Below are positions 8,828-49,470 of a stretch of DNA of 64,000 nucleotides, piece after piece. Source of the stretch: Burkholderiaceae bacterium (lineage in GTDB: Bacteria > Pseudomonadota > Gammaproteobacteria > Burkholderiales > Burkholderiaceae_E). Position 1 is the stretch's first letter, and each line of letters begins with the position of its first letter. The stretch lies in NCBI GenBank assembly GCA_036525975.1, contig DATCZK010000001.1:5-64004 (forward strand), given 5' to 3'. The notes below the pieces were generated by a model. The model did no database searches. It was not told where the DNA came from and saw nothing but the letters and a program-made list of their open reading frames with translations. The position numbers and the translations under genes were made by a program.

Positions 8828-11800
8828 TCAGGAGCCGCGTCGCAGGTCGAGCGTGAAGGGGTAGTTCGGGTTCTGCGGCTGCGTCTCGAGCGCCACCTGG
8901 CCGGGCGTGTGCCCCGTCCGGAAGAAGCGGGCCAGCCGCCGCGCCTCAGCCTCGTAGGCGTTGACCGGGAAGGTCTGGTAGTTGCGCCCGCCGGGATGCG
9001 CGACATGATAGCGGCACCCGCCCATCGAGCGGCCCATCCAGCCGTCGACCAGGTCGAAGGTGAGCGGCGCGTGCGGCGCGATCGTCGGGTGCAGGCTCGA
9101 GGCCTGCTGCCACGCGCGGTAGCGCACGCCCGCGACGAACTCGCCCGCGTTGCCGGTGGGCTGGAGCGGCACCCGGCGCCCGTTGCAGTAGATCGCGTGC
9201 CGGTCGTCGATCAGGCCGTGCACCTTCACCTGCAGGCGCTCGAGCGTTGCGTCGACGTAGCGCGCCGTGCCGCCGGGCGCGCCCTCCTCGCCCATCACGT
9301 GCCAGGGCTCCAGCGCCAGCCGCAGCTCCACCTCGACGTTGCGCGCGGCGAAGTCCCCCAACCGCGGGAACCGGAACTCGAAGTGCGGCGCGAACCACTC
9401 GGCCTGCAGCGGGTAGCCCAAGGCCGCGGTCTCCTCGATCACGTCGGCGAAGTCGTCCCAGACGAAATGCGGCAGCATGAAGCGGTCGTGCAGCTCGGTG
9501 CCCCATCGCTTGAGCCGCGCGGGTCGGTAGGGTTGCCGCCAGAAGCGCGAGACCAGCGCGCGCATCAGCAGCTGCTGCGCGAGGCTCATCCGCGCGTGCG
9601 GCGGCATCTCGAAGGCGCGCATCTCCAGCAGCCCGAGCCGCCCGGTGGCGCTGTCGGGCGAGTACAGCTTGTCGATGCAGAATTCCGCGCGGTGGGTGTT
9701 GCCGGTCACGTCCACCAGCAGGTGGCGCAGCAGCCGGTCGATCTGCCAGGGCGGCAGGCTCGGCCCGGCCTGCGACTGCAGCCGCTCGAGTTCGCGAAGC
9801 GCGATCTCGATCTCGTACACCGATTCGTGCCGCGCCTCGTCGATTCGCGGCGCCTGGCTGGTGGGCCCGATGAACAGGCCCGAGAACAGGTACGACAGCG
9901 ACGGGTGGTTGTGCCAGTACGCGACCATGCTCGCGAGCAGGTCGGGCCGGCGCAGGAAGGGCGAATCGCCCGGCGTCGCGCCGCCCAGCACGAAGTGGTT
10001 GCCCCCGCCCGTGCCGGTGTGCCGCCCGTCGATCATGAACTTCTCGCTCGACAGGCGCGTGTGGTGGGCGGCCTCGTAGAGGAACGTGGTCTGCTCGACC
10101 AGCATCCGCCAGTTGTGCGCCGGGTGGACGTTCACTTCGATCACGCCCGGGTCGGGCGTCACGCGCAGCACGGCGAGCCGCGGGTCGCGCGGCGGCTCGT
10201 AGCCCTCCACCACCACCGGCAGGCCCGTCTCGTGCGCGGTGGCCTCGATCGCGGCCACCAGCTCGAGGTAGTCCTCCAGCGCGCTGGTGGGCGGCATGAA
10301 CAGGTGCAGGCGGCCGGCGCGCGTCTCCGCGCACAGCGCCGTGCGCGTGATGTCCGCGGCCGACTCGAACATCGCGGGCGCGCGCTCGTCGGCGGGCGTC
10401 TCGAGGCCGCCCGCTTGCGCAGCGGCGGCGGACGCTGCGCGCGCGCCCGGCGAAACGCCCGCACCCGGCGGCTGCATCAGGATCTGCGCGTGCGAGGGCA
10501 AGGGCGGGAACGACTGCGTCGGGTCCGGCGCGTGCACCCACGGATAGTCCGAGGGCGCGACCCAGGGCTGCGAGTCGAGCGGCAGGCGAAAGCCGATCGG
10601 GGAGTCGCCAGGCACCAGGTAGCAGCGCTCGTCGCGCAGGAACCATCGGCCGCTGCGCCAGCGGCGCGGCCCCTGGCTCGCGCGCGCCACCGGCAGGACG
10701 TGGCCCGCCGGCTTGTCGAGTCCCTCGGTGAAGATGCGGCGAATGCGCGCGCGCTCCTGCGCGTCCTCCAGGCGCGAGTCGAAGGGGTCGACGTTCACCG
10801 GCAGGCGGCGCTCGCGCCAGAGGTAGTACCAGCTGTCCTCGAAGGCGGGAAAGACCAAGCCCGGGTCGAGACCCAGCCTCGCGGCCACGCGCGCGAGAAA
10901 AGCCTGCGACTGCGCGGCCGTGACGCCGTAGTCGGCCTCGTCGTCGGCGATCAGCGCCGGGTCCGACCACACCGGCTGGCCGTCCTTGCGCCAGAACAGG
11001 TTCAGCGACCAGCGCGGCAGCGGCTCGCCGGGGTACCACTTGCCCTGGCCGAAGTGCGACAGGCCCGTGGGCGCGTAGTGGTCGCGCAGCCGCGCGAGCA
11101 GCTCGCCGGCGCGCTTGCGCTTCAGTGGCCCCAGCGCCGCGGTGTTCCACTCCGCGCCGTCGCGGTCGTCGATCGAGACGAAGGTGGGCTCGCCGCCCTG
11201 CGTGAGCCGCACGTCGTTGGCATCGAGGTCTTCGTCGATGCGATGCCCCAGCGCCTCGATCTGCGCCCACTGCGCCTCGGAATAGGGCTTGGTGACGCGG
11301 GGCGCCTCCCAGATCCGCTCCACGCGCATCGCGTGCGAGAACTCGCATTCGGCCGGTTCCACCAGGCCGGTCACGGCAGCCGCCGACGCCGGGTCGGGCG
11401 AGCACGCCACCGGGATGTGCCCCTCGCCCGCGAGCAGCCCCGAGGTGGGGTCGAGCCCGATCCAGCCCGCGCCGGGGAGGTAGACCTCGCACCATGCGTG
11501 CAGATCGGTGAAGTCGGCCTCGGCCCCCGAGGGGCCGTCGAGCGACTTCACGTCGGGCTTGAGCTGGATCAGGTAGCCGGAAGCGAAGCGGGCCGCCAGC
11601 CCGAGGTGGCGAAGGAGCTGCACCAGCAGCCAGCTCGTGTCGCGGCACGACCCCTCGCCGAGCGCGAGCGTCTGCTCGGGCGTCTGCACGCCGGGCTCGA
11701 GCCTGACCAGGTAGCGCGTGTCGGCCTGCAGCTTGCGGTTCACCTCGACCAGGAAATCCACGGTGCCCGTCTCGGGGCGCCGGAGCGCGTCCAGGTACTG

Positions 11801-12184
11801 CGCGAAGCGCGGGGTCGCGGGCTGCCTGACGAGGTACGGCGCGAGCTGGTGGAGCTCGTCGTCGGTGTAGCGGAACGGGAACTTCTCGGCGTAGGGCTCG
11901 AGAAAGAAGTCGAAGGGATTGAACACCGACATCTCGGCGACGAAGTCGACCTCGATCCGCAACGCGTCGGTCTTGTCCGGAAACGCCAGCCGCGCGAGGT
12001 AATTCGCCTGCGGGTCCTGCTGCCAGTTGATGAAGTGCCCGGCCGGCTCGACCCGCATCGAATAGCTGAGGATGCGCGTGCGCGAGTGCGGGCACGGGCG
12101 CAGCCGCACGATCTGCGGGCCGAGCGCGACCGGCCGCTCGTAGCGGTACGACGTGAGGTGATTGAGCGCTACGTGGATCGACAA
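8828..12184 (-). CDS. Large transglutaminase-family protein with a DUF2126-type C-terminal region
   Basis: Sequence shows ..SIHVALNHLTSYRYERPV.. (Bact_transglu_N), EGSCRDTSWLLVQLLRHLGLAARFASGY ... LHAWCEVYLPGAGWIGLDPTSG (transglutaminase core), then a roughly 800-aa conserved extension. The ORF runs to 12229. I prefer TTG at 12184 because GGAG lies 7 nt upstream and homologs as I recall them begin at MSIHV. The start is uncertain by 15 codons. Confidence 0.88.
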   Translation of the reverse strand: MSIHVALNHLTSYRYERPVALGPQIVRLRPCPHSRTRILSYSMRVEPAGHFINWQQDPQANYLARLAFPDKTDALRIEVDFVAEMSVFNPFDFFLEPYAEKFPFRYTDDELHQLAPYLVRQPATPRFAQYLDALRRPETGTVDFLVEVNRKLQADTRYLVRLEPGVQTPEQTLALGEGSCRDTSWLLVQLLRHLGLAARFASGYLIQLKPDVKSLDGPSGAEADFTDLHAWCEVYLPGAGWIGLDPTSGLLAGEGHIPVACSPDPASAAAVTGLVEPAECEFSHAMRVERIWEAPRVTKPYSEAQWAQIEALGHRIDEDLDANDVRLTQGGEPTFVSIDDRDGAEWNTAALGPLKRKRAGELLARLRDHYAPTGLSHFGQGKWYPGEPLPRWSLNLFWRKDGQPVWSDPALIADDEADYGVTAAQSQAFLARVAARLGLDPGLVFPAFEDSWYYLWRERRLPVNVDPFDSRLEDAQERARIRRIFTEGLDKPAGHVLPVARASQGPRRWRSGRWFLRDERCYLVPGDSPIGFRLPLDSQPWVAPSDYPWVHAPDPTQSFPPLPSHAQILMQPPGAGVSPGARAASAAAAQAGGLETPADERAPAMFESAADITRTALCAETRAGRLHLFMPPTSALEDYLELVAAIEATAHETGLPVVVEGYEPPRDPRLAVLRVTPDPGVIEVNVHPAHNWRMLVEQTTFLYEAAHHTRLSSEKFMIDGRHTGTGGGNHFVLGGATPGDSPFLRRPDLLASMVAYWHNHPSLSYLFSGLFIGPTSQAPRIDEARHESVYEIEIALRELERLQSQAGPSLPPWQIDRLLRHLLVDVTGNTHRAEFCIDKLYSPDSATGRLGLLEMRAFEMPPHARMSLAQQLLMRALVSRFWRQPYRPARLKRWGTELHDRFMLPHFVWDDFADVIEETAALGYPLQAEWFAPHFEFRFPRLGDFAARNVEVELRLALEPWHVMGEEGAPGGTARYVDATLERLQVKVHGLIDDRHAIYCNGRRVPLQPTGNAGEFVAGVRYRAWQQASSLHPTIAPHAPLTFDLVDGWMGRSMGGCRYHVAHPGGRNYQTFPVNAYEAEARRLARFFRTGHTPGQVALETQPQNPNYPFTLDLRRGS

Positions 12185-12272
12185 GGTGGAGCTCCGTGGG
12201 TTGTGGACGACCGGGCGCGCGGCCCGCAAGTGCGCGCGCGCGCCGGCGCGCGCTCACCGATCGCCGCGCCGG

Positions 12273-12641
12273 TCATCGCTGCGCGAATGCCCCCGGGCCC
12301 GGCGCCCGCGGGAGCTGCGCGCGCTCGGACTTGCACACGCCCGGCGGGCAGGGGTAGTGATAGTAGCGATCGTTCAGGTAGCGCGAGACCGCGTCGATCT
12401 CCTCGTCGAGCCACACCGCGCCGAGCTCGCGATCCCAGCGCACCACGAACGCCCTGATCTCGGCGAAAGACCGCGCCGCGCGCGGGTTTCGCTGGTGCAC
12501 GCTGCGGTCGTGACAGAGCCCGCAGCGCATCTCGTACAGCACGCGTCCGCGAGCGGTCTCCGGGCTCTGGGCGACGGCGCCCGGCGCGGCGAGCGACAGC
12601 GCCGCCTGAACAACCGCCACCGCCACAACCCTGCCGAGCAT
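12273..12641 (-). CDS. Small secreted c-type cytochrome (single CXXCH), family unclear
   Basis: Start taken at MLGRVVAVAVVQAALSLAAPGAVA/QS (signal peptide). A single CGLCH motif is present. The composition is non-degenerate, unlike the Arg-rich overlapping frames. I could not recognise a family. Confidence 0.55.
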   Translation of the reverse strand: MLGRVVAVAVVQAALSLAAPGAVAQSPETARGRVLYEMRCGLCHDRSVHQRNPRAARSFAEIRAFVVRWDRELGAVWLDEEIDAVSRYLNDRYYHYPCPPGVCKSERAQLPRAPGPGAFAQR

Positions 12642-12741
12642 TGCGCCGCACCTCCCGCGCAGATCGCGCCGCGCTTCCTCTCGCAATGCTAGCAGGTGCG
12701 GGCGAGCGCCCCGGGTTGCGGGGCCGCGGCGCGGGAAACGG

Positions 12742-14919
12742 CTATTTGAGCTCGATCGTGACCGAGCTCTCGCCGACGTTGCCGGCCGCGTCGAAGGCGC
12801 GGGCCGTGATCGTCCACTGCCCGGGCGAAACCTTGCGCGCGTTCCAGTTCACCGAATAGGGCGCGCCGGCGTCGGTGCCCACCAGTTGCCCGTTGGCGTA
12901 GAACTCCACGCGCGCAACCCCGTCGCTGTCGGTGGCGCTGGCCGCGAGCGAGACCCGCCCGCGCTTGAGCACCGCCCCCGCCGACGGGCTGGTCACCGAG
13001 ACCACCGGCGCCACCGCGTCGCTGAACACGACGTAGGTTCCGGTGGCCGACGCGCTGCCGCCGCCCGCCGCCGAGTCGGTGGCGCTCGCCGTGATCGCGT
13101 ACGCGGCGTCGGCGGCCGTGGTTGCCGAAGTCACCGACCAGGTCAGGGTCGCGCTCGCGCCGGGCGCCAGCGCGACGGCCGACGGCGCGAACGAACCCGA
13201 GAGGGCGCCGGGCAGCGCCTGGGTCATGCTGAACGTGCTGCCCGGGCAGGCCGCGCTGTTGCGGTTGGTCACGGTGGCGGTGTACTGCCTGGTCTGGCCG
13301 GGCGCGCCCGACTGGCTCGGCGGGCTGAGCGAAACGGCGGGGGCCGACGGGGTGCACGCCGGCGTGCCGCTCGCCACCGCGACGGTGGCCGCGCCGCCGC
13401 TGATCGACTGCACCGTGACCGAGACGCCGTTCGCCGCGTCGCTGAAGGTGCCGCCCGGGCCGAGCGCGGCGAGGAAATAGGTCTTGCTGCCCAGCGCGCC
13501 GTTGGAGCGGTGCACGCTGATCTGGTTCTTGTAGCCGCTCGAGAGGTTGAAGTCGAAGCCGTCGCCGGTGCGCAGGCTCAGGTAGTAGTGCTCGCCCGTG
13601 TCGGGCTTGGCGATGCGCAGGATCTGCGCGGCGGTCGACGCCGTGTTCGACGTGGACACGATCGAGTACGAGCCGCTCGAGCTCGCGTCGACCACGGTGC
13701 CGGTGGGCTGCCAGCCCGCGGCGATCCGGTTCGACGCGTTGAACTGCACCATCCGCGCACCGCCCATCGGGTCCGAGCCGTCGCCGTACTCGGCGCCGGG
13801 CGTGGCGGCGTGGTGGAAGCGCAGGTTGTGGCCGATCTCGTGCACGAACACGCCGGTGCTGCAGGTGGCCACCCACGACTGCGTGGGGAACGACCCGCCG
13901 AGGTAGGCGAGCCCCGCCCACCCGCAGCTGCTCACCGGCGGGATCGCGTACGAGATGCGCCGGTAGCTCGACAGGTTGATTCCGGCCGCCTGCGCGGCGG
14001 CCTTGAGCGCGCTGCCCCAGCCCGTGTAGTCGCAGGCGCCGCCCGACGAGTAGCCGATGTTGAAGGGTCCGACCACCTGCCCGGAGAACGACACGAGGTC
14101 GCGCGAGGTTTCCCTGTACAGGCGGTTGAGCGACGCGACGCTCGCGTCGGCGCTGAACAGGTTCGTCGCCACCTGCCCGGTGCCGCAGCTGAAGGCCTTG
14201 TCGGTGAAGTTCGCGGCGATCACGAGCGTGGTCTCGTTCACCGGCGCTGCGAGCGGCGTGGACGAAGTCGTGCTGGTCGAGCCCGAGGTGCCTCCGCCGG
14301 AACCGCCGCCCTTATTCGGCGCCGCCAGCGTCTCGACATTGCGGCGGTGGCCCACGACGAGGTGGTCCTTCAACAGCACGCCGCGGATCTTCACGTAGCT
14401 GTCCACGAGCTGGCGCAGCTCGTCGGCCGACAACGAAGCGTCGGCGGCGTCGATGTTCAGCCGCGTGGTCGTGCCGCTGGCGCTCACCTCGAGGAAGAAG
14501 TCCTCGCGCGTGCGGCCGTTGGCGAAGTCGTCGCTCACGCGCCCGAGCACCTTTCCGGTGGCGTCCACTTCCTGCTCCAGCCCGGCCGCGAGCGCCGCCG
14601 GGACCTTCGCGCGCAGCGATCCGGGAAGCGCCGCGAGCAGCACCTTCTCCGGGTTGCTCTTGACGATCGAGTACAGCGCCGCCTGGCGTTGCGCGATCTG
14701 CTCGAGCAGCTGCTGCTGCACCTGCGGCTTGTCCTTCGCCTCGGCGCGCTGCAGCCGTCGCAGGGTCGCGAGCATCTGGTTGGTGAGCACGGTGGCGGTC
14801 TCCCCGGCCGCGGGCTCGGGCTCGTGCGGCCCGTCGTGCGCGTGCGACGGCGAGATCGTCGCGGCAAGAAGGAACAGCGCCGCGATCGCGGCGCGCGGGA
14901 AGTTTCGGGATGCCGGCAT
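12742..14919 (-). CDS. Secreted zinc metalloprotease, metzincin-like (gametolysin/M11-like HExxHxxxxxH), with C-terminal Ig-like domains
   Basis: 725 aa with a signal peptide (..LLAATISPSHA/HDG). There is a Gly/Ser/Thr linker (GGGSGGGTSGSTSTTSST). The zinc motif is VFVHEIGHNLRFHHA, followed by GDGSDPMG. The C-terminus looks like Ig-like repeats (..VARVEFYANGQLVGTDAGAPYSVNWN..). Confidence 0.8.
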   Translation of the reverse strand: MPASRNFPRAAIAALFLLAATISPSHAHDGPHEPEPAAGETATVLTNQMLATLRRLQRAEAKDKPQVQQQLLEQIAQRQAALYSIVKSNPEKVLLAALPGSLRAKVPAALAAGLEQEVDATGKVLGRVSDDFANGRTREDFFLEVSASGTTTRLNIDAADASLSADELRQLVDSYVKIRGVLLKDHLVVGHRRNVETLAAPNKGGGSGGGTSGSTSTTSSTPLAAPVNETTLVIAANFTDKAFSCGTGQVATNLFSADASVASLNRLYRETSRDLVSFSGQVVGPFNIGYSSGGACDYTGWGSALKAAAQAAGINLSSYRRISYAIPPVSSCGWAGLAYLGGSFPTQSWVATCSTGVFVHEIGHNLRFHHAATPGAEYGDGSDPMGGARMVQFNASNRIAAGWQPTGTVVDASSSGSYSIVSTSNTASTAAQILRIAKPDTGEHYYLSLRTGDGFDFNLSSGYKNQISVHRSNGALGSKTYFLAALGPGGTFSDAANGVSVTVQSISGGAATVAVASGTPACTPSAPAVSLSPPSQSGAPGQTRQYTATVTNRNSAACPGSTFSMTQALPGALSGSFAPSAVALAPGASATLTWSVTSATTAADAAYAITASATDSAAGGGSASATGTYVVFSDAVAPVVSVTSPSAGAVLKRGRVSLAASATDSDGVARVEFYANGQLVGTDAGAPYSVNWNARKVSPGQWTITARAFDAAGNVGESSVTIELK

Positions 14920-16923: not shown

Positions 16924-16965
16924 GCCTGTTCGCATGCAATTGAAAGTATAGCGAGCGACGCGCGC

Positions 16966-17901
16966 TCAGGGCGGCGGGATCGCGCCCTTGCGTTCCACGA
17001 TCATCGCGTAGGCCTGCGGCTCGCGATGGCGCGCGAAGTTGAACGTGGTGGTCTTGTACGACTTCGTGAGGTCGAGGTCGCAGCGCGCGATCGCCAGCTC
17101 GTCGGCGCTGGTCGTGCACGCGCCGACGATCTCGCCCGAGGGCGCGACGACGATCGAATTGCCGATCTGGTCCACGCCCTCCTCCACGCCGGCCTTGGCC
17201 ACGCCCACCACCCACGTGCCGTTCTGGTAGGCGCCCGCCTGCATCACGAGCTCGTTGTGGAAGTGCGAGAGGTTGTCGTGCTCGGGCGCCGGCGGATTGT
17301 GCACCGGCGTGTTGTACCCGATCAGCACCATCTCCACGCCCTGCAGCCCCATCACCCGGTAGCTCTCGGGCCAGCGGCGGTCGTTGCAGATGCACATGCC
17401 GACCAGGCCGCCGAAGGCGCGAAACACCGGGAAGCCGAGGTTTCCGGTCTCGAAGTAGCGCTTCTCCAGGTGCTGGAACCTGCGCCAGGGCTCGTGCTCG
17501 GCGTGCCCGGGCAGGTGGATCTTGCGGTACTTGCCCACGATCGCGCCGGTCTTGTCGACCAGGATCGAGGTGTTGAAGCGGCGCGTGCGCCCGTCTTCCT
17601 CGGCGAGCTCGGCGTAGCCGAGGTAGAAACCGACGCCCAGCTCGCGCGCGGCCTCGAACAGCGGCCGCGTCTCGGGGCCGGGCATCTCGCGCTCGAAGAA
17701 CGCGTCGACTTCCTCCTGGCGCTCGAAGTACCAGCGCGGGAAGAAGGTCGTGAGCGCGAGCTCCGGGAACACGACCAGGTCGCAGCCGTGCGACCTCGCC
17801 TGCGTCATCAGCGCCAGCATGCGCGCGACGACCTGGGTGCGCGACTCGGCGCGCGCGATCGGGCCGAGCTGCGCGGCAGCCACGGTGACGATTCTCGACA
17901 T
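16966..17901 (-). CDS. N-carbamoyl-D-amino-acid hydrolase (D-carbamoylase; nitrilase superfamily)
   Basis: 311 aa. Long stretches match the Agrobacterium D-carbamoylase as I remember it: VFPELALTTFFPRW, RRFNTSILVDKTGAIVGKYRKIHLPGH, FQHLEKRYFE, CNDRRWPE, GYNTPVHNPPAPEHD. Confidence 0.92.
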   Translation of the reverse strand: MSRIVTVAAAQLGPIARAESRTQVVARMLALMTQARSHGCDLVVFPELALTTFFPRWYFERQEEVDAFFEREMPGPETRPLFEAARELGVGFYLGYAELAEEDGRTRRFNTSILVDKTGAIVGKYRKIHLPGHAEHEPWRRFQHLEKRYFETGNLGFPVFRAFGGLVGMCICNDRRWPESYRVMGLQGVEMVLIGYNTPVHNPPAPEHDNLSHFHNELVMQAGAYQNGTWVVGVAKAGVEEGVDQIGNSIVVAPSGEIVGACTTSADELAIARCDLDLTKSYKTTTFNFARHREPQAYAMIVERKGAIPPP

Positions 17902-17904
17902 GGA

Positions 17905-19155
17905 CTACTCCTGCGAAGCGAGCTCGAGCAGCGTGTGCAGCAGCACGTTGGCACCGGCCTGCAGGTCTGCGGGCTCGGTGTGCTCGGCGGGGTTGTGGCT
18001 GATGCCCTTCACGCTGGGCACGAAGATCATTGCGCTCGGGCAGATTCGCGCGAACATCTGCGCGTCGTGCCCCGCGCCGGAGGTCATCCGGCGGTGCGAG
18101 TGGCCCAGTTGCGCCGCAACGGCCTCCACCCGGTCGGCCAGCGCGGCGTCGAAAGTCACCGGCTCGAAGCGCGCGAGCCGGCGCGTCTCGATCGAGACCT
18201 TCTCGTCGCTGGCGAGCTCGCGCAGGAACTGCTCGAGCCGCGCCTCGGCGTGGCGCAGCAGTTCCTCGTCGGTGTTGCGCAGGTCGGCGGTGAGCGTGGC
18301 GCGCGCCGCGATCACGTTGATCAGGTTCGGGTGCAGGTCCACCTTGCCCACCGTGCAAACCTGCGACCCGCCCATCTCGCGCGCGAGCGCGCGCAGGAAC
18401 GCGGCGATCGCCGCCGCGCAGTAGCCCGCGTCGCGGCGCAGGCGCATCGGCGTGGTGCCCGCGTGGTTCGACTGCCCGGTGATGGTGATCTCCTGCCACG
18501 AGATGCCCTGCAGGTTCTCCACCGCGCCGATCGTCACGCCCTCGGCGTCGAGCACGGGGCCCTGCTCGATGTGCAGCTCGAGGTAGGCGCTGGGCCTGAA
18601 CTGGCCGAGCGGCGCGGTGCCGGCGTAGCCGATGCGCCGGAGCTCCTCGCCCAGCACCTTGCCGTCGATCGAGACCGCCGCCAGCGCCTCGTCGAGCGGC
18701 ATCCCGCCCACGTACACGAGCGAGCCCAGCATGTCGGGGGCGAAGCGCGCGCCCTCCTCGTCGCTGAAGAACGCGACCACGATCGGCCGGCGCGTGACGA
18801 TGCCCGCGTCGTTCAGCGTCTGCACCACCTCGAGCCCGCCGATCACGCCCAGGTTGCCGTCGTAGCGCCCGCCCGTGCGCACCGTGTCGATGTGCGAGCC
18901 CGTCATCACCGGGTCGAGCGGCTCGGCGCCGCGGCGCAGGCCGAAGACGTTGCCGATCGGGTCGATCGACACCTCCAGCCCGAGCTCGCGCATCCAGCCC
19001 GCGACCAGGTCGCGGCCGCGGCGGTCTTCGTCGCTGAACGCGAGCCGGCAGCACCCGCCGCCCTCGATCGCGCCGATCTCGGCGAGCGCGTCGAGCCGGC
19101 GCAGCAGGCGCTTTGCGTCGACGCGAAGCGCCCGGTGTTCCGTCGCCGCGCTCAC
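17905..19155 (-). CDS. M20-family Zn-dependent amidohydrolase (allantoate amidohydrolase / N-carbamoyl-L-amino-acid hydrolase / beta-ureidopropionase type)
   Basis: Real part of track ORF 17905..20019. The GTG start at 19155 overlaps the dpaL stop as GTGA. Sequence: ..RLDALAEIGAIEGGGCCRLAFSDEDRRGRDLVAGWMRELGLEVSIDPIGNVFG..MTGSHIDTV..GGRYDGNLGV..; 416 aa. Confidence 0.88.
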   Translation of the reverse strand: MSAATEHRALRVDAKRLLRRLDALAEIGAIEGGGCCRLAFSDEDRRGRDLVAGWMRELGLEVSIDPIGNVFGLRRGAEPLDPVMTGSHIDTVRTGGRYDGNLGVIGGLEVVQTLNDAGIVTRRPIVVAFFSDEEGARFAPDMLGSLVYVGGMPLDEALAAVSIDGKVLGEELRRIGYAGTAPLGQFRPSAYLELHIEQGPVLDAEGVTIGAVENLQGISWQEITITGQSNHAGTTPMRLRRDAGYCAAAIAAFLRALAREMGGSQVCTVGKVDLHPNLINVIAARATLTADLRNTDEELLRHAEARLEQFLRELASDEKVSIETRRLARFEPVTFDAALADRVEAVAAQLGHSHRRMTSGAGHDAQMFARICPSAMIFVPSVKGISHNPAEHTEPADLQAGANVLLHTLLELASQE

Positions 19156-20375
19156 GCCATCACCTGCTCGGCGCTGCGCCCCACGATCGAGCGATGGATC
19201 TCGGGATCGGTGTCGCCTTCGCTCCCGAGCAGCAGCACGCGCGAATCGGGCCCGAGGCCGAGCGCGGCGCGCAACTGCGCGTTGCCGCGCGTTGCGAGCA
19301 GCGCGGCGAGGCCGGCCGCGCCGGTCTCGCCCGAGACGATGGCCGGGTCGCCCGCCGCCGGGTCGTCGAAGGCGCGCACGCCCTCGAGCGCGAAGCGATC
19401 GGCCACCGCCATGTACGCGTCGGCGGCGCCCGAGACGATCTCCCAGGCGAGCGGCGAAACCTCGCCGCACGCGAGCCCCGCCATCACGGTGTCGAGGTCG
19501 CCGTGCACGGCCACCGGCCGGCCCGCGAGCGCGCTCTGGAAGAAGCAGTCGGCGCGCTCGGGCTCCACCACGACCACGCGCGGCCGGCGCTCGCCCCAGG
19601 CGATCCAGAAGTTCGCGCACACCGACGCCGCCAGCGCGCCCACCCCGGCCTGCACGAACACGTGCGTGGGCGGCTCCTGCCCGAAGCCCGCGACCACCTC
19701 GCGCGACATCACGCCGTAGCCGTGCATCACGTCCACCGGAATGTCGCGATAGCCCTCGTAGGTGGTGTCGGACACCACCGTCCAGCCGTTGCGCTCGGCC
19801 CGCTCGGCGGCGTGGCGCACCGAGTCGTCGTAGTTGCCGGCCACGCGCACTGCCTCGGCGCCGAAGCGCGCGATCGCGGCGCGCCGGCCCTCGCTCACCG
19901 TGGCGTGGACGTAGATCACGCAGCGGCACCCGAAGAGCTGCGCCCCCCAGGCGACCGAGCGGCCGTGGTTGCCGTCGGTGGCGCAGGTCACGGTGACCCT
20001 GGAGGCAGCGTCGCGCCACCGCCCGGCGATCAGGTCGGCCGAGGTCACCGGCACGCCGCCGTTGGCGGCCTCGATCCGCGACTTGAGCAGCCGGAACACC
20101 GCGTAGGCGCCGCCCAGCGCCTTGAAGCTCTTGAGCCCGAAGCGACTGCCTTCGTCCTTGTAGCGCAGACCGGCCAGGCCCAGCGACGACGCCAGCCCCG
20201 GCAAGCGGTGCAGCGGCGTTGCGGCGTAGCCCGGCCAGCCCGCGATCTCGCGCTCGGCGGCGGCGAAGCCCGCCTCGCCGAGGATCGCGGAGCGGGCCGC
20301 GCCGTAGGGTTCCCCGCGCGCGGCGGCGCGGGGATTGGGAAGTACGCGGACGCCGTCCGCCTGCAAGACGATCAT
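19152..20375 (-). CDS. dpaL: Diaminopropionate ammonia-lyase (PLP-dependent, YgeX/DpaL type)
   Basis: 407 aa. It has ..LRYKDEGSRFGLKSFKALGGAYAV.. (PLP-lysine region) and ..TCATDGNHGRSVAWGAQLFG.., with length and pattern typical of DpaL. Confidence 0.88.
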   Translation of the reverse strand: MIVLQADGVRVLPNPRAAARGEPYGAARSAILGEAGFAAAEREIAGWPGYAATPLHRLPGLASSLGLAGLRYKDEGSRFGLKSFKALGGAYAVFRLLKSRIEAANGGVPVTSADLIAGRWRDAASRVTVTCATDGNHGRSVAWGAQLFGCRCVIYVHATVSEGRRAAIARFGAEAVRVAGNYDDSVRHAAERAERNGWTVVSDTTYEGYRDIPVDVMHGYGVMSREVVAGFGQEPPTHVFVQAGVGALAASVCANFWIAWGERRPRVVVVEPERADCFFQSALAGRPVAVHGDLDTVMAGLACGEVSPLAWEIVSGAADAYMAVADRFALEGVRAFDDPAAGDPAIVSGETGAAGLAALLATRGNAQLRAALGLGPDSRVLLLGSEGDTDPEIHRSIVGRSAEQVMA

Positions 20376-20391
20376 CCGCGCATGACCCCGA

Positions 20392-21438
20392 TTACTTGCT
20401 GTGCTTGGCGATGTCGGCGAGCATCGCGTTCAACATCGCGGTGCCCTCGGCGCCGAGCTGCTCCTCGATGATCTTGCGCACCGCGGGCTGCGACGACGCG
20501 GCGAACTTCTTCAGCTCGGCGGCCGGCACGGCGTTGACCTTCATCTTCTTGGCGAGCTTCGGAATGCCCTTCTCGGTGGAGGCCTCGATGATGCGCGAGA
20601 TGCCGCGCCCGGCGTTCACGGCCACGTCGGCCGCTTCGTCCACGATCTTCTTCTCTTCGGCCGTGAGGCTGTTGTAGAACTTCGGGCTCACGAACCAGAA
20701 GTACGGCGTGATCACGTGGTTGGTGATCGACAGGTACTTCTGCACTTCGTCGAACTTCGCGAAAGCGATGATCGGCACCGGGTTCATCTGGCCGTCGGCC
20801 ACGCCGGTCTGCAGCGCGGTGTACACCTCGGCCCAGGGCAGCGCGGTGGGCTGGCCGCCGAGCGAGCGGACGATCGCCTCGTGCGTGGGAAGCGTCATCG
20901 TGCGGATGCGCAGGCCCGCCATGTCGGCGGCGCTGGTGATCGGCTTCTTGTTGTTGGAAAAGGCGAAGAAGCCGCCCGAATCGAGCAGGCCGAGCACCTT
21001 CAGGCCGGTCTTGGCCTGCAGGTCGGCGGTGAACTTCTTGCCGAAGTCGCTGTCCTTGTCGATCACCTTGTCGGCCACCGCGATGTTCGGGAACGCGAAC
21101 GGCAGGTCGAACACGCCCACCATCTTGTAGTGCGAAGCAACGCCGCCCGAGGACGAGATCACCGACTCGACGATGCCGTCGCGCACCTGCTGGATGACTT
21201 CGTTGTCCTTGCCCAGCTGGCCGTTGGCGAAGATCTGCACCTTGATGCCGCCGTTGGTGGCCGTCTCGACCAGGTTCTTGAACACCGCGGCCATCGCGCC
21301 CGAGTGGCTGTCGAAGGGGCTGTCGGGGTTCAGGTGCGCGATGCGCATGGTCTTCTGCGCGAACGCCGGAGAGGCGCCGATGACCGCGGCAACGGCGGTG
21401 GCCGCGGCTGCGAATGCCAGTTTGCGGAAAGCTCTCAT
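20392..21438 (-). CDS. dctP: TRAP transporter substrate-binding protein (DctP family)
   Basis: 348 aa with signal peptide ..ASPAFA/QKT. DctP-family pattern (MRIAHLNPDSP..; ..KFDEVQKYLSITNH..). Confidence 0.9.
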   Translation of the reverse strand: MRAFRKLAFAAAATAVAAVIGASPAFAQKTMRIAHLNPDSPFDSHSGAMAAVFKNLVETATNGGIKVQIFANGQLGKDNEVIQQVRDGIVESVISSSGGVASHYKMVGVFDLPFAFPNIAVADKVIDKDSDFGKKFTADLQAKTGLKVLGLLDSGGFFAFSNNKKPITSAADMAGLRIRTMTLPTHEAIVRSLGGQPTALPWAEVYTALQTGVADGQMNPVPIIAFAKFDEVQKYLSITNHVITPYFWFVSPKFYNSLTAEEKKIVDEAADVAVNAGRGISRIIEASTEKGIPKLAKKMKVNAVPAAELKKFAASSQPAVRKIIEEQLGAEGTAMLNAMLADIAKHSK

Positions 21439-21495
21439 TTCAATACCTCCTGGTTCAACGATCGAAAAAGGGTTGATTCGGGAACGCGCGGTCGA

Positions 21496-22785
21496 TCAAT
21501 CCACGAGCCCGAGCAAGCGCGGAACGAACAGGGTGAGGTCCGACCAGTAGGCGATCAGCCCGAGGATCGCCACCTCGGCGATCAGGAACGGCCAGAGCGA
21601 CCTGGCGATGCGCTCGATGCGCTCGCCGGTGACCGAGGCGAGCACGAACAGGCACGCGCCCACCGGCGGCGTCATCAGCGAGATGTTAAGCGCCAGCACG
21701 ATCATGACGCCGGCGTGCACCGGATCCATGCCGATCGCCACGGTGAGCGGCGCGAGCACCGGCGCGAGGATCACGAGCATCGCGTTGATGTCCATGAACA
21801 TGCCGATGAACAGCAGCAGCGCGAGGATCAGCCCGATGATCACCTTCGGGTCTTCCGAGACCGCGAGGAACGCCGTGGCGATCATCTGCGGGATCTGGTT
21901 GAAGGTCATCCACCACCCGAGGATCGACGCCGAGGCGATGATCAGGAACACCACGCCGGTGATGCGCGCGGTGCGCACGAGCATCTGGTACAGGTCGGGC
22001 AGGCTCAGCTTGCGGTAGACCACGCCGCCCATGAACAGCGCGTAGGCGATCGCGATCGCCGCCGCCTCGGTGGGCGTGGCGATCCCGCCCAGGATCGAGC
22101 CCAGGATGAACACCGGCATCGCCAGCGCGGCGAGCCCGTCCTTGAACGCGACGAAGATCAGCCGCAGGCTCGGCCGCCCCTCGCCCTTGGGCAGGTTCCA
22201 GCGCCTGCCGAAGGCGGCGATCACGGCCATGCAGATCAGGCAGATCAGCAGGCCAGGAAGAATCCCGGCGGCGAACAGCCCGGCGATCGACACGCCCATC
22301 AGCGAGCCGTAGATGATCATCAGGTTCGACGGCGGAATCGTGGGCCCGATGATCGACCCCGCGGCCGTCACGGCGCAGGCGAAGGGGCGCGTGTAGCCCT
22401 TCTTCACCATCGCCGGCACCAGCGTGTTGCCAAACGCCGCGGCGTCGGCGGTGGCCGCGCCGGTGAGCCCGGCGAACATCACCGAGGCCACCATGTTCGA
22501 GTGCGCCATCCCGCCGCGCAGGTAGCCCACCAGCGCGTCGGCCAGCGCGATCAGCCGGTCGGTGATGCCCGAGCGGTTCATGATCTCGCCGGCGAGGATG
22601 AAGAACGGCATCGCGAGGAAGGTGAACAGGTCCAGCCCCGCGAAGAAGCGCTCGGGCGCCATGAGCAGGAAGCGGCCGCCCGGGTCGATCGTGAACATGC
22701 CCACGATGCCCGCGATCCCGAGCAGGTAGCCGATCGGCATCCCGAGCAGCAGCAGGCCGAAGAAGGTGACGGCCACGTAGATCAC
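21496..22785 (-). CDS. dctM: TRAP transporter large permease (DctM family)
   Basis: Real part of track ORF 21496..23310. The GTG start at 22785 overlaps the dctQ stop (GTGA). VIYVAVTFFGLLLLGMPIGYLLG.. is a polytopic membrane protein of about 429 aa. Confidence 0.9.
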   Translation of the reverse strand: MIYVAVTFFGLLLLGMPIGYLLGIAGIVGMFTIDPGGRFLLMAPERFFAGLDLFTFLAMPFFILAGEIMNRSGITDRLIALADALVGYLRGGMAHSNMVASVMFAGLTGAATADAAAFGNTLVPAMVKKGYTRPFACAVTAAGSIIGPTIPPSNLMIIYGSLMGVSIAGLFAAGILPGLLICLICMAVIAAFGRRWNLPKGEGRPSLRLIFVAFKDGLAALAMPVFILGSILGGIATPTEAAAIAIAYALFMGGVVYRKLSLPDLYQMLVRTARITGVVFLIIASASILGWWMTFNQIPQMIATAFLAVSEDPKVIIGLILALLLFIGMFMDINAMLVILAPVLAPLTVAIGMDPVHAGVMIVLALNISLMTPPVGACLFVLASVTGERIERIARSLWPFLIAEVAILGLIAYWSDLTLFVPRLLGLVD

Positions 22786-23312
22786 GGCGCGACGTGCTCG
22801 GGGTGCAGCCCGATGCGCGCCTGGTCGCGCACCGCGACCAGCGCGAGCTGGACGGCGGCGAGCGCCGCGGCCACCGGCACCGCGGCGAAGGGCAGCGCCT
22901 TGCTCATGCCGTAGATCATCGTGAAGGTGCGCGCGCCGCGCTCGGTGAGGCCCACGCCGTAGACGATGAGCAGCACGAAGAACGCGATGCCGAGCAGGTC
23001 GATGAGCAGCAGCAGCGCGCGGCGCGCCGCCAGCGGCAGCGCCGCGAACAGCATCTGCACGCCGATGTGCTCGCGCCGCGTGATGCCGCACGAGACCGCG
23101 AGCAGAGCCACCCAGATCATCAGGTAGCGCGCCGCCTCCTCCATGAACGTGATCGGCAGCGGCCAGACGTAGCGCACGATCACGCCGAGCCAGACGTCGA
23201 GCACGAGCACCACCATCAGCGCCACGCAGACGCGGTCGATCACGCGCGTGAGCCACTCGCTCGCGTTGTGCGCCTTCAGCGCCGCGCCGCCGAGCCCGGT
23301 CATGTCCCACAT
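22782..23312 (-). CDS. dctQ: TRAP transporter small permease (DctQ family)
   Basis: 176 aa with four hydrophobic helices. It sits immediately upstream of dctM and overlaps it. The start could be M1 or M4. Confidence 0.85.
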   Translation of the reverse strand: MWDMTGLGGAALKAHNASEWLTRVIDRVCVALMVVLVLDVWLGVIVRYVWPLPITFMEEAARYLMIWVALLAVSCGITRREHIGVQMLFAALPLAARRALLLLIDLLGIAFFVLLIVYGVGLTERGARTFTMIYGMSKALPFAAVPVAAALAAVQLALVAVRDQARIGLHPEHVAP

Positions 23313-23433
23313 CGATGCGTCTCCCCCTGTCGCGATCCCCGCGGCGCGCTGGCGGGCCGTTGCCGCCGCGCGAGGCCTTGTCGGCGGTCGCGTTTGCGCC
23401 TATTCTGGACCACGAATTTCAAAAAGTCCAACG

Positions 23434-24375
23434 ATGAAAAAGAAGTTTCAGCTGGTGCCGCCAGCCAAGGACGCGTCTGCCTCGGACGAGCAAGATCGAG
23501 GCCAACCGGCGAGGCGGCGTGCGCACGAGCGCGCGGCGCCGGCACTCGCCGCGCGCATCGAGCAGGCGTACGCGGCGATGCCGCCGAGCGAGAAGTCGGT
23601 GGCGAACCTGTTGCTCGAGTCGCCCGGGCGACTCGCGACGCATTCGGCCACCGAACTCGCGTCGCTCGCGCGATCGTCCAAGGCCGCGGTCACCCGCTGC
23701 ATGCGCCGGCTGGGATACGAGAGCTTCGCGCTGGCGCGCGCCGACGCGCGGCAGGCGCAGCAGTGGGGATCGCCGCTTTACCTCGCGGCCGTCGGCGAAG
23801 CCAGCGCACGCCGATCCGATCTCGACGCGCACGTTGCCGCGGACGTCGAGATCCTGAACAAGACGCGCGACGCGCTCTCGGAAGACGACCTGACCGCGGC
23901 TGCCCACGCGCTCGCCGGTGCGCGGCGCGTCGTTGTCCTCGGGTTCAGGAACAGCCATCTGCTCGCGGGTTTCGCCAGGGCGCAACTGGGGCTGTTGCGA
24001 CCCAACGTGGAGCTCGTTCCCACCGCGGGCGAGACGCTGGCCGAGGGTCTCGCCGAGCTCGGCCGCTCCGACGTCGTGCTCGCGCTCGGATTCAGGCGGC
24101 GCGTGCCCACCTTCGTGCGCGCGCTCGAGGTCGCGCACCGTGCCGGTGCGCGCATCGTCTACGTCACCGACCCCAGCGGCAGCGTCGCGCCGCGCACCGC
24201 AACCTGGACGCTTCGCTGCCACTGCCGCGGCGCCTCGCTGTTCGACAGCTACGTCGGCGCGATCAGCGTGCTCAACTACCTGGCCGCGCGGGTGGCGAGC
24301 CTGGTCGGGGAACCGGCCCGCAAGCGCCTGCAGGACGTGGAGCGGATGCACGGGGAACTGGGCGACCTGATCTGA
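23434..24375 (+). CDS. MurR/RpiR-family transcriptional regulator (HTH plus SIS domain)
   Basis: Start taken at MKKKFQLV (ATG 23434). ..MPPSEKSVANLLLESPGRLATHSATELASLARSSKAAVTRCMRRLGYESF.. is the RpiR HTH, followed by an SIS-like domain (ARRVVVLGFRNSHLLA..). It is divergent from the TRAP operon. Confidence 0.85.
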   Translation: MKKKFQLVPPAKDASASDEQDRGQPARRRAHERAAPALAARIEQAYAAMPPSEKSVANLLLESPGRLATHSATELASLARSSKAAVTRCMRRLGYESFALARADARQAQQWGSPLYLAAVGEASARRSDLDAHVAADVEILNKTRDALSEDDLTAAAHALAGARRVVVLGFRNSHLLAGFARAQLGLLRPNVELVPTAGETLAEGLAELGRSDVVLALGFRRRVPTFVRALEVAHRAGARIVYVTDPSGSVAPRTATWTLRCHCRGASLFDSYVGAISVLNYLAARVASLVGEPARKRLQDVERMHGELGDLI

Positions 24376-24409: not shown

Positions 24410-25342
24410 ATGATCGACGTTCTCTCGATCGGCGAGCCGATGATCGAGTTCAACCAGACCTCGGCGCGCGAGCCCGCGTACCTGCGCGGCTTCGGCGGCG
24501 ACACCTCGAACGTGGCGATCGCGGCGGCGCGCAGCGGCGCGCGCGCCGGGTACGCCACGCGGGTGGGCGACGACGGCTTCGGGCAACTGCTGCTCGAGCT
24601 GTGGCGCGCCGAGGGGGTGGACACCTCGCTCGTTTCCGTGGACCCCGCGGCGCACACCGGCGTGTACTTCGTGACGCACGGCCCGCGCGGGCACGCGTTC
24701 AGCTACCTGCGGGCCGGTTCGGCGGCGAGCCGCCTCGGCCCGCAGGACCTTCCCGCCGAGCGCGTTGCGCAGGCGCGCATCGTGCACGCCTCGGGCATCT
24801 CGCTCGCGATCTCCGCGAGCGCGTGCGACGCCGTGCTGCACGCCTTCGACGCGGCGCGCGGCGCGGGCCGCCGGGTGGCGCTCGACTCGAACCTCAGGAT
24901 CAAGCTCTGGCCGCTCAGCCGCGCGCGCGCGATCATCGGCGCGGCCGCCGGCATGGCCGAGTACTTCTTTCCCAGCCTGGAGGACGCGACCGCGCTCTCG
25001 GGGTTGAGCGAGCACGATGCGATCCTCGACTGGGCGCACGCGCTGGGCGCCGCCGTCGTCTTTCTCAAGCTGGGCGCCGATGGCGTGGTCGTGAGCGAGG
25101 GCGGCCGGCGCGAACGCTTCGAGGGGCACCGGGTGAACGCGCTCGACGCGACCGGCGCAGGCGATTGCTTCTGCGGCGCGTGCCTTGCGCGCATCGCGGC
25201 CGGCGACTCGGTGTGGGAAGCCGCGCGTTACGCCAACGCCGCAGCGGCGTTGGCAACCACCGGATTTGGCGCGGTCGCGCCTCTCCCCGGACCCGAACAG
25301 GTGCGCGCGCTGCTTGCAAGCACTCGTTCCGCGCCGCGCTAG
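24410..25342 (+). CDS. PfkB-family sugar kinase (2-dehydro-3-deoxygluconokinase-like)
   Basis: 310 aa. It has MIDVLSIGEPMIEFNQ.. and the C-terminal DATGAGDCFCGA motif of ribokinase/PfkB kinases. Confidence 0.85.
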   Translation: MIDVLSIGEPMIEFNQTSAREPAYLRGFGGDTSNVAIAAARSGARAGYATRVGDDGFGQLLLELWRAEGVDTSLVSVDPAAHTGVYFVTHGPRGHAFSYLRAGSAASRLGPQDLPAERVAQARIVHASGISLAISASACDAVLHAFDAARGAGRRVALDSNLRIKLWPLSRARAIIGAAAGMAEYFFPSLEDATALSGLSEHDAILDWAHALGAAVVFLKLGADGVVVSEGGRRERFEGHRVNALDATGAGDCFCGACLARIAAGDSVWEAARYANAAAALATTGFGAVAPLPGPEQVRALLASTRSAPR

Positions 25343-46284: not shown

Positions 46285-47283
46285 CTACTTCTTCTTCTTC
46301 GCGGCTTCTTTCGCGACTTCCTTCTCGTACTGGGTGCGGTTGAAGGCCTGCCCCGCGCCCTCGGCCACCTGGCGCACCACCGCCCAGTCTTTCTGGAACG
46401 TGATCGGGAAGAAGCGATCGGCGCCCGCGAAGGCTTTCTTCATCTCGTCGGGGAAGCGATAGGCGTAGAAGCAATCGAGGATCTTCTTCGACAGCGCGGG
46501 TTCGAGGTCGTGCGCGATCGCGAACGAGGAGGTCGGGAACTTGGCGCTGCGATAGATGATGCGGAAGTCATCTTCCTTGATCTGGCCGCGCGACGCCATG
46601 CGCTCGAAGACGTCGGAGGCGACCGCGGCGCCGTCGTAGTCGCCGCTGTTCACGCCCATGACCGACTGGTCGTGCTTGCCCGAGAACAGGATCTTGTAGT
46701 CCTTGTCGGGCGTGAGGCCCTGCGACGGGAACAGCGCCATCGGGGCCATGTGGCCGGAGTTCGACGAGGGCGACGTGTGCGCGAATTTCTTGCCCTTGAG
46801 CTCGGCCAGCGTCTTGTACGGGCTGTCCTTCTTCACGATCACGATCAGGTTGTAGCCCTGGAACTCCTTCTCGGTGCCTTTCACCGCGAAGGGCACGGCG
46901 CCGGCGATGTTCACCGCGAAGGCGGTGGGGCCGGTGGAGAATCCCCCGACGTGCAGCCGCCCGGAACGCATCGCCTCGATCTCGGCGGCATTGCTCTGGA
47001 CCTGGAAGAACACCACCCGCTTGGACGTGCACTGGGCGAGGTAGTCGGTGAAGGGATTGAAGATCTTCTCGTAAACTGCCGGATCTTCCACCGGGGTGTA
47101 GGTGAAGACGATGGTCGAGGGGTTCTTCAGTTTCTTCGCGTCGCTGGGGGTGTCGGCGACGAGATCCTTGTTCGCGTCGCAGAACTGCGGGTCGAGATCC
47201 CCGCGGTTGGGGCAGCTGTCCTGGGCGAATGCGACGCCCGAAACCGCGAACGCAGCCAGGAATGCGAGCAATTGCTTGCGCAT
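46285..47283 (-). CDS. phnD: Phosphate/phosphite/phosphonate ABC transporter substrate-binding protein
   Basis: 332 aa with signal peptide ..SGVAFA/QD. PhnD-like pattern (..FTYTPVEDP..; ..[11 protein letters not shown]..). It carries an unusual Lys-rich C-terminal tail, KEAAKKKK. Confidence 0.9.
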
Positions 47284-47377
47284 GGTTGGTCTCCTCGATT
47301 GACGTTGTTCGGCGGGACGCTGTGGCCCCGGCGTGTGGCGCGATTATAGACGGCCCGTGCAACCCGCTTCTCCGACG

Positions 47378-48277
47378 ATGACGCATCGCCCGCCCCCTTC
47401 GCGATACATCGGCCGCTTCGCCCCCTCGCCCACCGGCCCGCTGCACGCGGGCTCGCTGGTCGCGGCAATGGGCAGCTACCTCGACGCGCGCGCCCACGGC
47501 GGGCTTTGGCTGATTCGGATCGAAGACCTCGACCCGCCGCGCGAGGTTCCCGGCGCGAGGCGCGCGATCCTCGAAGCGCTGCGCGCGCTCGGCTTCGAGC
47601 ACGACGGCGCCGTGGAGCTGCAGAGCGAGCGCGGCGCGCACTACGCGCGCGCGTTCGAGCGGCTGCGCGCGCTGGGCCTCGTGTACCCCTGCGCGTGCAC
47701 GCGCCGCGAGATCGCCGATTCGGCCCTTCCCGGCGCCGGCGGGGCGCAGCGCGGCCGCGAGCTCGTCTATCCGGGCACCTGCCGCAACGGGCTGCCCCCC
47801 GGACGCGAGCCGCGCGCCTGGCGCGTGCGCGTGGGCGACGCCACGATCGCGTGGCGCGACCGCGCGGCCGGCGCGCGCACCGAGCGCCTGGCCGAGCGGG
47901 TGGGCGACTTCGTGCTGCGCCGCGCAGACGGGCTGTGGGCCTACCAGCTGGCCGTGGTCGTCGATGACGCCCTGCAGCAGATCAGCGACGTCGTGCGCGG
48001 CGAGGACCTGATCGATTCGACCGCGCGACAGGTCTACCTGCAGCGATCGCTCGGCTTTCCGACTCCCCGCTACCTGCACCTGCCGCTGGTTCTCGCCGGG
48101 GACGGCGAGAAGCTCTCGAAGCAAAACGGCGCCCGCGCGATCGACACGGCCCGCCCGCTCGAAGCGCTCGGACAGGCGCTCGCGCACCTCGGCGTGGATC
48201 CGCCCGCGGCCCGCTCGGTGGCCGACTTCTGGCCGGCGGCGGTGGCCGCGTGGCGGCAGTCTCGCTGGATGCGCTGA
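47378..48277 (+). CDS. gluQ: tRNA glutamyl-Q(34) synthetase
   Basis: The start is [30 protein letters not shown] (HIGH-type motif), with ..[10 protein letters not shown] (KMSKS-type motif). Its truncated GluRS length (299 aa) is typical of GluQRS. Confidence 0.9.
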
Positions 48278-48285
48278 AGCGGCGA

Positions 48286-49450: not shown

Positions 49451-49470
49451 TCCGCGGCTGAGGTAGAACC

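Follow-up and report, generated by a model that had tools for sequence, protein, structure and literature searches.

A TRAP transporter operon with diaminopropionate ammonia-lyase and two carbamoylase-type enzymes: a candidate module for scavenging ureido derivatives of 2,3-diaminopropionate

Six genes lie in one row on the minus strand, from position 16966 to 23312, of a 64,000-nt stretch of contig DATCZK010000001.1 from a Burkholderiaceae bacterium. This whole stretch (~71% G+C) is called the window here, and all positions refer to it. The row consists of dctQ, dctM and dctP, encoding a tripartite ATP-independent periplasmic (TRAP) transporter, dpaL, encoding 2,3-diaminopropionate ammonia-lyase, a gene for an M20-family amidase and a gene for an N-carbamoyl-D-amino-acid hydrolase (D-carbamoylase, DCase). 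The genome that contains the window is betaproteobacterial (Burkholderiales), measures 3.2 Mb in 211 contigs and is 98.6% complete.

Gene identities and boundaries of the operon

A preliminary description of this DNA had noted tight packing of the six genes, with GTGA overlaps and gaps of 3 to 57 nt, and this was borne out in every detail that we checked. Read from the sequence, GTGA overlaps join dctQ to dctM and dpaL to the M20 gene. The dctM/dctP gap is 57 nt and holds an AGGAGG-like site, the dctP/dpaL gap is 16 nt and the M20/DCase gap is 3 nt.

The dpaL gene (19152-20375, minus strand) encodes a protein of 407 amino acids (aa) that scores 497 bits against the equivalog model NF006058 (cut-off 276). 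It matches the structure of E. coli DpaL (PDB 4d9g) with an E value of 3e-78, is 40.6% identical to E. coli YgeX and stays under the cut-off of the narrower model TIGR03528 (348 bits vs 532). All 54 aligned DpaL sequences, that of the window included, have Lys77, Asp120 and Asp189 (in the numbering of the E. coli enzyme), and Asp189 we take to be catalytic. Lys77 is the pyridoxal 5'-phosphate (PLP) lysine and Asp120 a catalytic residue (PMC4000059).

The M20 gene (17905-19155, minus strand), whose GTG start overlaps the dpaL stop, encodes a 416-aa amidase of the hydantoinase/carbamoylase family, to which AllC, HyuC and beta-ureidopropionase belong. It scores 418.5 bits against TIGR01879 (cut-off 204) and 489 against NF006769 (cut-off 452), and has both PF01546 and PF07687. 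Its solved relatives include N-carbamoyl-beta-alanine amidohydrolase 8c46 (E 6e-101) and the L-carbamoylases 8apz and 3n5f. The NCBIfam subfamily is named allantoate amidohydrolase, and the protein falls under every equivalog cut-off, those of AllC and ErtE among them, so that the family is known and the score does not fix the substrate within it. Two further TIGR01879 paralogues, 47% and 34% identical to the M20 of the operon, occur in the genome.

D-carbamoylases have been used for decades for making D-amino acids, and their natural role is unclear. The DCase of the operon (16966-17901, minus strand; 311 aa) has the nitrilase fold and matches the solved enzymes 8i99, 6lcg, 1fo6 and 1erz over its full length, with E values from 4e-131 to 2e-124; the alignment to 8i99 (E 4e-131) covers residues 1-306. 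It is ~64-65% identical to solved industrial D-carbamoylases and shares their catalytic and carboxylate-binding residues. Aligned to solved DCases, it keeps the triad of Glu47, the KIHLPGH lysine and Cys, as well as the CNDRRW substrate motif. The roles of the Glu-Lys-Cys triad and of the carboxylate-site residues Asn173, Arg175 and Arg176 have been described (PMC11503299). A homologous-protein search with this DCase returned near-identical betaproteobacterial proteins only, and no distant contexts.

All three components of the DctP-type TRAP transporter score above their Pfam cut-offs, and their genes are adjacent or overlapping. The small membrane subunit DctQ (22782-23312, minus strand; 176 aa) matches PF04290 with 78.3 bits (cut-off 28.3). 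The large membrane subunit DctM (21496-22785, minus strand; 429 aa, GTG start) matches PF06808 with 373 bits and TIGR00786 with 389.5 bits (cut-off 268). The periplasmic solute-binding protein DctP (20392-21438, minus strand; 348 aa, with a signal peptide) matches PF03480 with 255 bits, and it is the component that sets the substrate. The nearest solved relatives of DctP are 4nq8, 4ngu and 4p47 (E 3e-47 to 2e-44). Its carboxylate clamp is kept, R179 and N219 aligning with Arg173 and Asn213 of 4P47 (residue roles from PMC11668362). An AlphaFold model of DctP, built on a 13-sequence alignment, has a pLDDT of only 66.8, and comparison with the PDB returned the fold of TRAP solute-binding proteins (Z 20-24). 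Like the systems SiaPQM, DctPQM, TeaABC and IseP, the transporter of the operon has the three-component architecture, the solute-binding protein fold and the Arg/Asn carboxylate clamp; unlike them, its DctP clade travels with carbamoylases and DpaL.

A gene for an RpiR/MurR-family regulator (rpiR, 23434-24375, plus strand; Pfam HTH_6 36 bits, SIS 45 bits) is transcribed divergently from the operon, 121 nt away. Its open reading frame is open from 23248, and the translation points to the ATG at 23434 as the likely start. The 121-nt region between rpiR and dctQ (23313-23433, read from the sequence) presumably holds the promoters and the operator of the operon. It contains a single imperfect GC palindrome, at 23337-23356, and a consensus scan of the operon region, this intergenic region included, gave no sigma-70-like promoter. 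At the other end, a terminator-like hairpin on the minus strand (16952-16968, from the consensus scan and the sequence) stands directly 3' of the DCase stop and probably marks the end of the operon; a second GC-rich palindrome follows beyond it, ahead of a quinone oxidoreductase gene. No minus-strand terminator-like site was found inside the operon by the consensus scan. In metatranscriptome libraries of two studies, contigs cover parts of each of the six genes and span three of the five junctions; the dctQ/dctM and dpaL/M20 junctions are unbridged by the listed pieces. These matches, which can neither prove a single transcript nor rule out carry-over of DNA, give weak backing to expression and co-transcription of the operon.

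A PfkB-family sugar kinase gene (24410-25342, plus strand) begins 34 nt after rpiR. It was considered as a clue to a sugar acid and dropped, since it does not travel with the operon: in L012, a relative from the same genus, the gene adjoining rpiR encodes an SDR. The kinase probably lies outside this system.

The enzyme core recurs behind exchangeable importers

A scan with DCase, taking one genome per species, gave at least 578 relatives. We analysed the 80 closest (77-87% identity), 61 of which have enough upstream sequence for their gene content to be judged. The three genes dpaL, M20 and DCase stand in this order in 45 loci, M20 and DCase alone in 11, dpaL and DCase alone in three and DCase by itself in two; DpaL is thus present in 48 of the 61. 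The gene order recurs across many genera, and the arrangement of six genes is not a chance juxtaposition. The three loci with dpaL and DCase alone tie the product of DCase to DpaL. Within the genus dpaL is patchy, with a match in three of the 21 other genomes searched.

The importer varies. Of the 52 loci whose upstream sequence reaches 7 kb or more, 29 have a Dpp/Opp-type ATP-binding cassette (ABC) system, 16 have RpiR with TRAP and seven have neither; other relatives use a Liv-type ABC system or a carrier of the major facilitator superfamily (MFS). As the importers are interchangeable, it is the enzymes that are conserved as a unit, and different transporters stand ahead of them to bring in a small, amino-acid-like acid. 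An RpiR orthologue (54-69% identity) is divergent from the TRAP form in ~13 loci, and in Cupriavidus it is co-directional with the operon (45% identity). A D-aminoacylase of the family of C. difficile UacY (match to PDB 1m7j, E 6e-162) is encoded divergently in 11 Dpp-type loci. Two homologues of D-aminoacylase are present in the genome of the window, one on contig C83 and one in the window itself (~58675-60141, plus strand), 35 kb from the operon; the latter is 54-56% identical to the D-aminoacylase beside the Dpp-type operons.

Some loci without dpaL hold other PLP enzymes instead and make up a sister system. The TRAP loci L086, L089 and L092 have M20 and DCase followed by a ThrC-like and a CysK-like PLP enzyme, and L079, with a LysR regulator and neither TRAP nor dpaL, has M20 and DCase followed by the same pair. 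DctP is 75-95% identical within the dpaL-containing loci vs 58% for the TRAP loci with the PLP pair. In L085 and L094 an iron-sulfur L-serine dehydratase takes the place of the CysK-like gene. A search for the CysK-like enzyme in 400 genomes of the order gave four matches, with uninformative surroundings.

Most carriers are Betaproteobacteria of water, sludge and sediment. Cultured carriers are Piscinibacter (Ideonella) sakaiensis 201-F6, Thauera mechernichensis TL1, Zwartia hollandica and Cupriavidus oxalaticus X32. On a plasmid of the last (NZ_CP038636.1; L113:5556-12585) the genes for RpiR, DpaL, M20, DCase, an MFS carrier of the ACS family and a YgeY-family hydrolase follow one another on one strand. 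This hydrolase scores 393 bits against NF009555, above the equivalog cut-off of 321, and the Cupriavidus relative is the only one with a YgeY-family enzyme; the region is without annotation in the PLSDB record of the plasmid. In the Thauera loci L021 and L022 a gene for an NCS2 permease (~11520-12850), 34-35% identical to the urate transporter UacT of E. coli, lies ~0.6 kb downstream of DCase on the opposite strand.

M20 and DCase orthologues follow HyuA in urate-type clusters

The reductive urate (2,8-dioxopurine or yanthine) pathway was described in two studies and a commentary of 2025, so far for anaerobes and gut bacteria. XdhD and YgfK carry out the reductions, and SsnA and HyuA open the rings, giving (R)-2,3-diureidopropanoate (DUPA). 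One ureido group is then removed with the carbamoyltransferase YgeW, for which C. difficile uses the D-aminoacylase-like UacY, and the other with the M20 enzyme YgeY; YgeX (DpaL) takes 2,3-diaminopropionate (DAP) to pyruvate. According to the two papers, DUPA, 3-amino-2-ureidopropanoate and albizziin are real bacterial metabolites of this pathway. The preliminary description had pointed to the E. coli ygeW-ygeX-ygeY-hyuA neighbourhood, and the annotated K-12 region is as it stated. Reference proteins from this region were compared with the loci that we fetched.

A cluster in a betaproteobacterial metagenome-assembled genome (L073:1-10951, equal to G431:C23, ~46334-58235) joins orthologues of the operon's carbamoylases to genes of this pathway. 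It begins with a selenium-dependent xanthine dehydrogenase (XDH; TIGR03311, 883 bits vs cut-off 830) and a short SsnA-like gene, which seems to overlap the end of the XDH gene and has SsnA as its best NCBIfam match, under the cut-off. Next, where YgeX would be, come two PLP enzymes, one CysK-like and one ThrC-like, then the N-terminal half of a YgfK-like gene on the opposite strand, and then a D-hydantoinase of the HyuA type (526 bits vs cut-off 393; 42% identical to E. coli HyuA). Directly after it come an M20 that is 66% and a DCase that is 80% identical to those of the window. The 16 kb upstream of the XDH gene contain no E. coli urate genes. This M20 is closer to that of the window than are the paralogues in the window's own genome, and in a quick maximum likelihood (ML) tree the DCase nests inside the clade of DCases from loci with all three enzymes.

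Scanning metagenomes with the L073 hydantoinase gave three further contigs. L140 has a HyuA-type hydantoinase, then an M20 (73% identical to that of the window), then a DCase (83%); L141 has a HyuA-type hydantoinase and an M20 (71%) before the contig ends. L139 has YgfK (68.5% identical to E. coli), a full-length SsnA (70.7%) and then a hydantoinase of the HyuA type, 72.5% identical to that of L073. From the contexts of L073, L140 and L141, the carbamoylases of the window therefore have orthologues in the position that YgeW and YgeY hold in E. coli, directly after the enzyme that makes diureidopropanoate. The CysK-like/ThrC-like pair stands at the place of YgeX also in the urate-type cluster L167.

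Two other metagenome contigs, L178 and L179, carry urate clusters of the C. difficile type, with SsnA, YgfK, HyuA, XDH, a UacT-like protein, YgeX, a YgeY-like and a D-aminoacylase-like protein in one direction. In G059, a very small genome from the same order that consists of one 0.9-Mb contig, ygeW, ygeX, ygeY and hyuA (L019:5620-10823) are 60-80% identical to those of E. coli. Such closeness, unexpected for a genome of a betaproteobacterial order, suggests horizontal transfer or an unusual lifestyle.

The preliminary description had found no hydantoinase or racemase; indeed neither occurs in the operon or anywhere between 15899 and 27082. The operon also has no Amidohydro_3 gene, and the window has no XdhD-type molybdenum enzyme, YgfK, SsnA or HyuA. 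In the whole genome the best matches to the YgeW, YgeY (NF009555) and SsnA families reach 39, 105 and 172 bits, the cut-offs being 500, 321 and 455. With none of these three above its cut-off, the substrate is probably taken up from outside and not made internally. The single D-hydantoinase above the cut-off lies on a 3-kb contig (G000:C89:198-1562; L100), beside a protein with a flavin-reductase-like domain, and may mean that a ureidomethyl-hydantoin is used too.

Proposed function and alternatives

We consider it probable, from gene content and context, that the six genes form a self-contained module with which ureido derivatives of DAP are scavenged. Most likely, a freshwater or sediment betaproteobacterium would use it to take up the open-chain ureido compounds that arise when uric acid is broken down without oxygen. 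According to the preliminary description, a carbamoylated or ureido form of DAP (albizziine-type, either enantiomer, or doubly carbamoylated) would be imported and decarbamoylated, and the DAP deaminated; gene context supports this through the HyuA-M20-DCase contigs and the recruited hydrolases of YgeY and UacY type. The neighbourhoods of DCase relatives agree with it, all three enzymes being present in most of the judged loci.

We infer the transported compound, the ureido group that each enzyme removes and the regulation by RpiR as follows. DctP would bind the acid in the periplasm and DctQM would import it. The acid may be DUPA, the half-hydrolysed 3-amino-2-ureidopropanoate or albizziin, or several of these. 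DCase would hydrolyse the ureido group on the D-configured alpha carbon; given the R configuration, the 2-ureido compounds are N-carbamoyl-D-amino acids, the substrate class of DCase. The M20 amidase, of AllC/beta-ureidopropionase type, would hydrolyse the 3-ureido group; compounds with this group are beta-ureido acids, the kind of substrate on which M20 beta-ureidopropionases act. DpaL would convert the freed DAP to pyruvate and two ammonia, so that each molecule could yield pyruvate, at most four NH3 and two CO2, and RpiR would control the operon. The loci with dpaL and DCase alone fit import of 3-amino-2-ureidopropanoate. The module would be the hydrolytic counterpart of the steps of YgeW (or UacY), YgeY and YgeX, coupled to an importer and uncoupled from the reduction and opening of the rings.

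A more specific proposal, to which we give a little less than even chances, is that the natural role of DCase is to hydrolyse the D-configured 2-ureido group of DUPA or (R)-3-amino-2-ureidopropanoate. DCase and the AllC-like M20 would together make up a lower branch of reductive purine degradation that works by hydrolysis alone, and many aquatic and sludge Betaproteobacteria would have just this branch behind high-affinity importers.

Like the lower urate module of E. coli, C. sporogenes and C. difficile (YgeW or UacY, YgeY and YgeX), the operon would convert 2,3-diureidopropanoate by way of a mono-ureido-DAP and DAP to pyruvate, and its last enzyme is a true homologue. In the E. coli module the ureido groups are removed by a carbamoyltransferase, together with carbamate kinase, and by an M20 of DapE/ArgE type, whereas in the operon both removals would be hydrolytic and fall to other families, a nitrilase-fold DCase and an AllC/HyuC-type M20, with no gain of ATP. 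Compared with the E. coli cluster the window lacks XdhD, YgfK, SsnA and an adjacent HyuA, and has an importer and RpiR instead. The hyu clusters of Agrobacterium, Ensifer, Pseudomonas and Arthrobacter, which combine a hydantoinase, a D- or L-carbamoylase, a racemase and a permease, share with the operon a close DCase homologue and a HyuC-family M20; unlike them, the operon has neither hydantoinase nor racemase and has both carbamoylase types together with a DAP lyase. DCases from alphaproteobacterial plasmids (~64% identical) have no dpaL nearby; their neighbours are an XRE regulator, an adenine-deaminase-like amidohydrolase, an alanine-racemase-family protein and a BMP ABC importer, and in the quick ML tree they form a long outgroup branch. 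The aerobic ureide pathway of AllC, ureidoglycine aminohydrolase and ureidoglycolate amidohydrolase follows a similar substrate logic, as DUPA equals allantoate plus one carbon and two ureido groups are removed stepwise. In contrast to that pathway, the M20 of the operon falls under the AllC equivalog cut-off (TIGR03176, 289 bits vs 598), a cupin ureidoglycine hydrolase is absent, and the product DAP would go to pyruvate rather than to glyoxylate.

Several observations weigh against a dedicated role in the use of ureido-DAP. RpiR/SIS regulators are typically sensors of phosphosugars. The solved relatives nearest to DctP are at most 31% identical to it, with hydroxy and sugar acids as the reported ligands; of the three usual carboxylate-site residues one is changed, Arg152 of 4P47 being Phe158 in DctP. 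In 16 of the 61 judged loci dpaL, M20 or both are missing, so that the core may act on more than a single substrate. The M20 is no orthologue of YgeY (32 bits against the E. coli protein); the place of its gene and the chemistry of its family, rather than orthology, are the grounds for the role proposed for it. As many N-carbamoyl-D-amino acids are substrates of D-carbamoylases (PMC11503299), the DCase sequence alone gives no pointer to DAP derivatives. The two studies of 2025 disagree over whether the real mono-ureido intermediate is the 2-ureido or the 3-ureido compound. The SsnA-like gene of L073 is short and its score lies under the cut-off. Finally, the genome of the window is without the upper pathway, and an outside source of ureides in sediment or water is needed.

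Three other functions were weighed, and each accounts for fewer of the context observations than does the use of ureido-DAP. The operon could serve general scavenging of N-carbamoyl amino acids, arising for example from 5-substituted hydantoins that open spontaneously or by enzymes, or from carbamoylation by cyanate, with DCase acting on D forms, M20 on L forms and DpaL as a loosely attached deaminase for serine- or DAP-like products. DCase and a HyuC-type M20 are the classic D- and L-carbamoylases, DCases are broad in range, a D-hydantoinase exists elsewhere in the genome, and some relatives without dpaL carry other PLP enzymes or L-serine dehydratase (L085, L094, L086, L089). Such scavenging has no need for a DAP-specific lyase with invariant catalytic residues, however, and 48 of the 61 loci keep dpaL, which in the operon is coupled in translation to the M20 gene. 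It also leaves unexplained why M20 and DCase follow HyuA in clusters with XDH, SsnA and YgfK and why a YgeY-family hydrolase is recruited, and in the urate-type cluster L167 YgeX has given way to the PLP pair that elsewhere stands in for dpaL. We regard this function as unlikely.

Catabolism of plant L-albizziine (L-2-amino-3-ureidopropionate) from legume seeds or litter, in which M20 would remove the 3-ureido group and DpaL would finish, with DCase as an extra for some minor D form, seems distinctly improbable. Albizziin is a natural plant amino acid and was a substrate of YgeY and YgeX in vitro in the 2025 studies, and the M20 resembles beta-ureidopropionases. DCase, however, is the most constant member of the loci, by construction of the search, and stands with dpaL alone, without M20, in three of them; the carriers are for the most part not plant associates, and the link with HyuA, SsnA and YgfK points to purines. 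Least credible of all is a place in the reductive pyrimidine branch, with import of beta-ureidopropionate, beta-ureidoisobutyrate or a 5-substituted analogue and M20 as the beta-ureidopropionase. The closest named solved relative of M20 is indeed N-carbamoyl-beta-alanine amidohydrolase, and many metagenome hydantoinase loci carry the distant nitrilase-type partner typical of PydB-PydC. Those nitrilase partners beside dihydropyrimidinases are, however, only ~30% identical to the DCase of the operon, beta-alanine is not a substrate of DpaL, a strict D-alpha-carbamoylase would have no role there, and the two other TIGR01879 paralogues of the genome could serve pyrimidines.

The preliminary description knew of no described pathway with this gene set behind a TRAP transporter, and this holds within the literature that could be searched. 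The chemistry has been known since 2025; the hydrolytic, importer-linked version with DCase and an AllC-type M20 was not found described in the literature searched. Within a limited literature search, no described TRAP ligand is known to be a ureido acid, and DctP would be the first TRAP binding protein for one if the operon serves ureido-DAP. The last steps of the reductive urate pathway would then have a second, hydrolytic solution, built from different enzyme families and common in environmental Betaproteobacteria, and D-carbamoylase would gain a physiological substrate. A strictly D-alpha-specific carbamoylase and a beta-ureido-type amidase would also offer a separate experimental handle on the dispute over the 2-ureido or 3-ureido intermediate, and the cultured carriers make the use of ureido-DAP directly testable. 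If it is confirmed, open-chain intermediates of the pathway would be exchanged between organisms as nutrients, and part of what the carriers live on would be the nitrogen-rich ureides that leak from anaerobic bacteria degrading purines.

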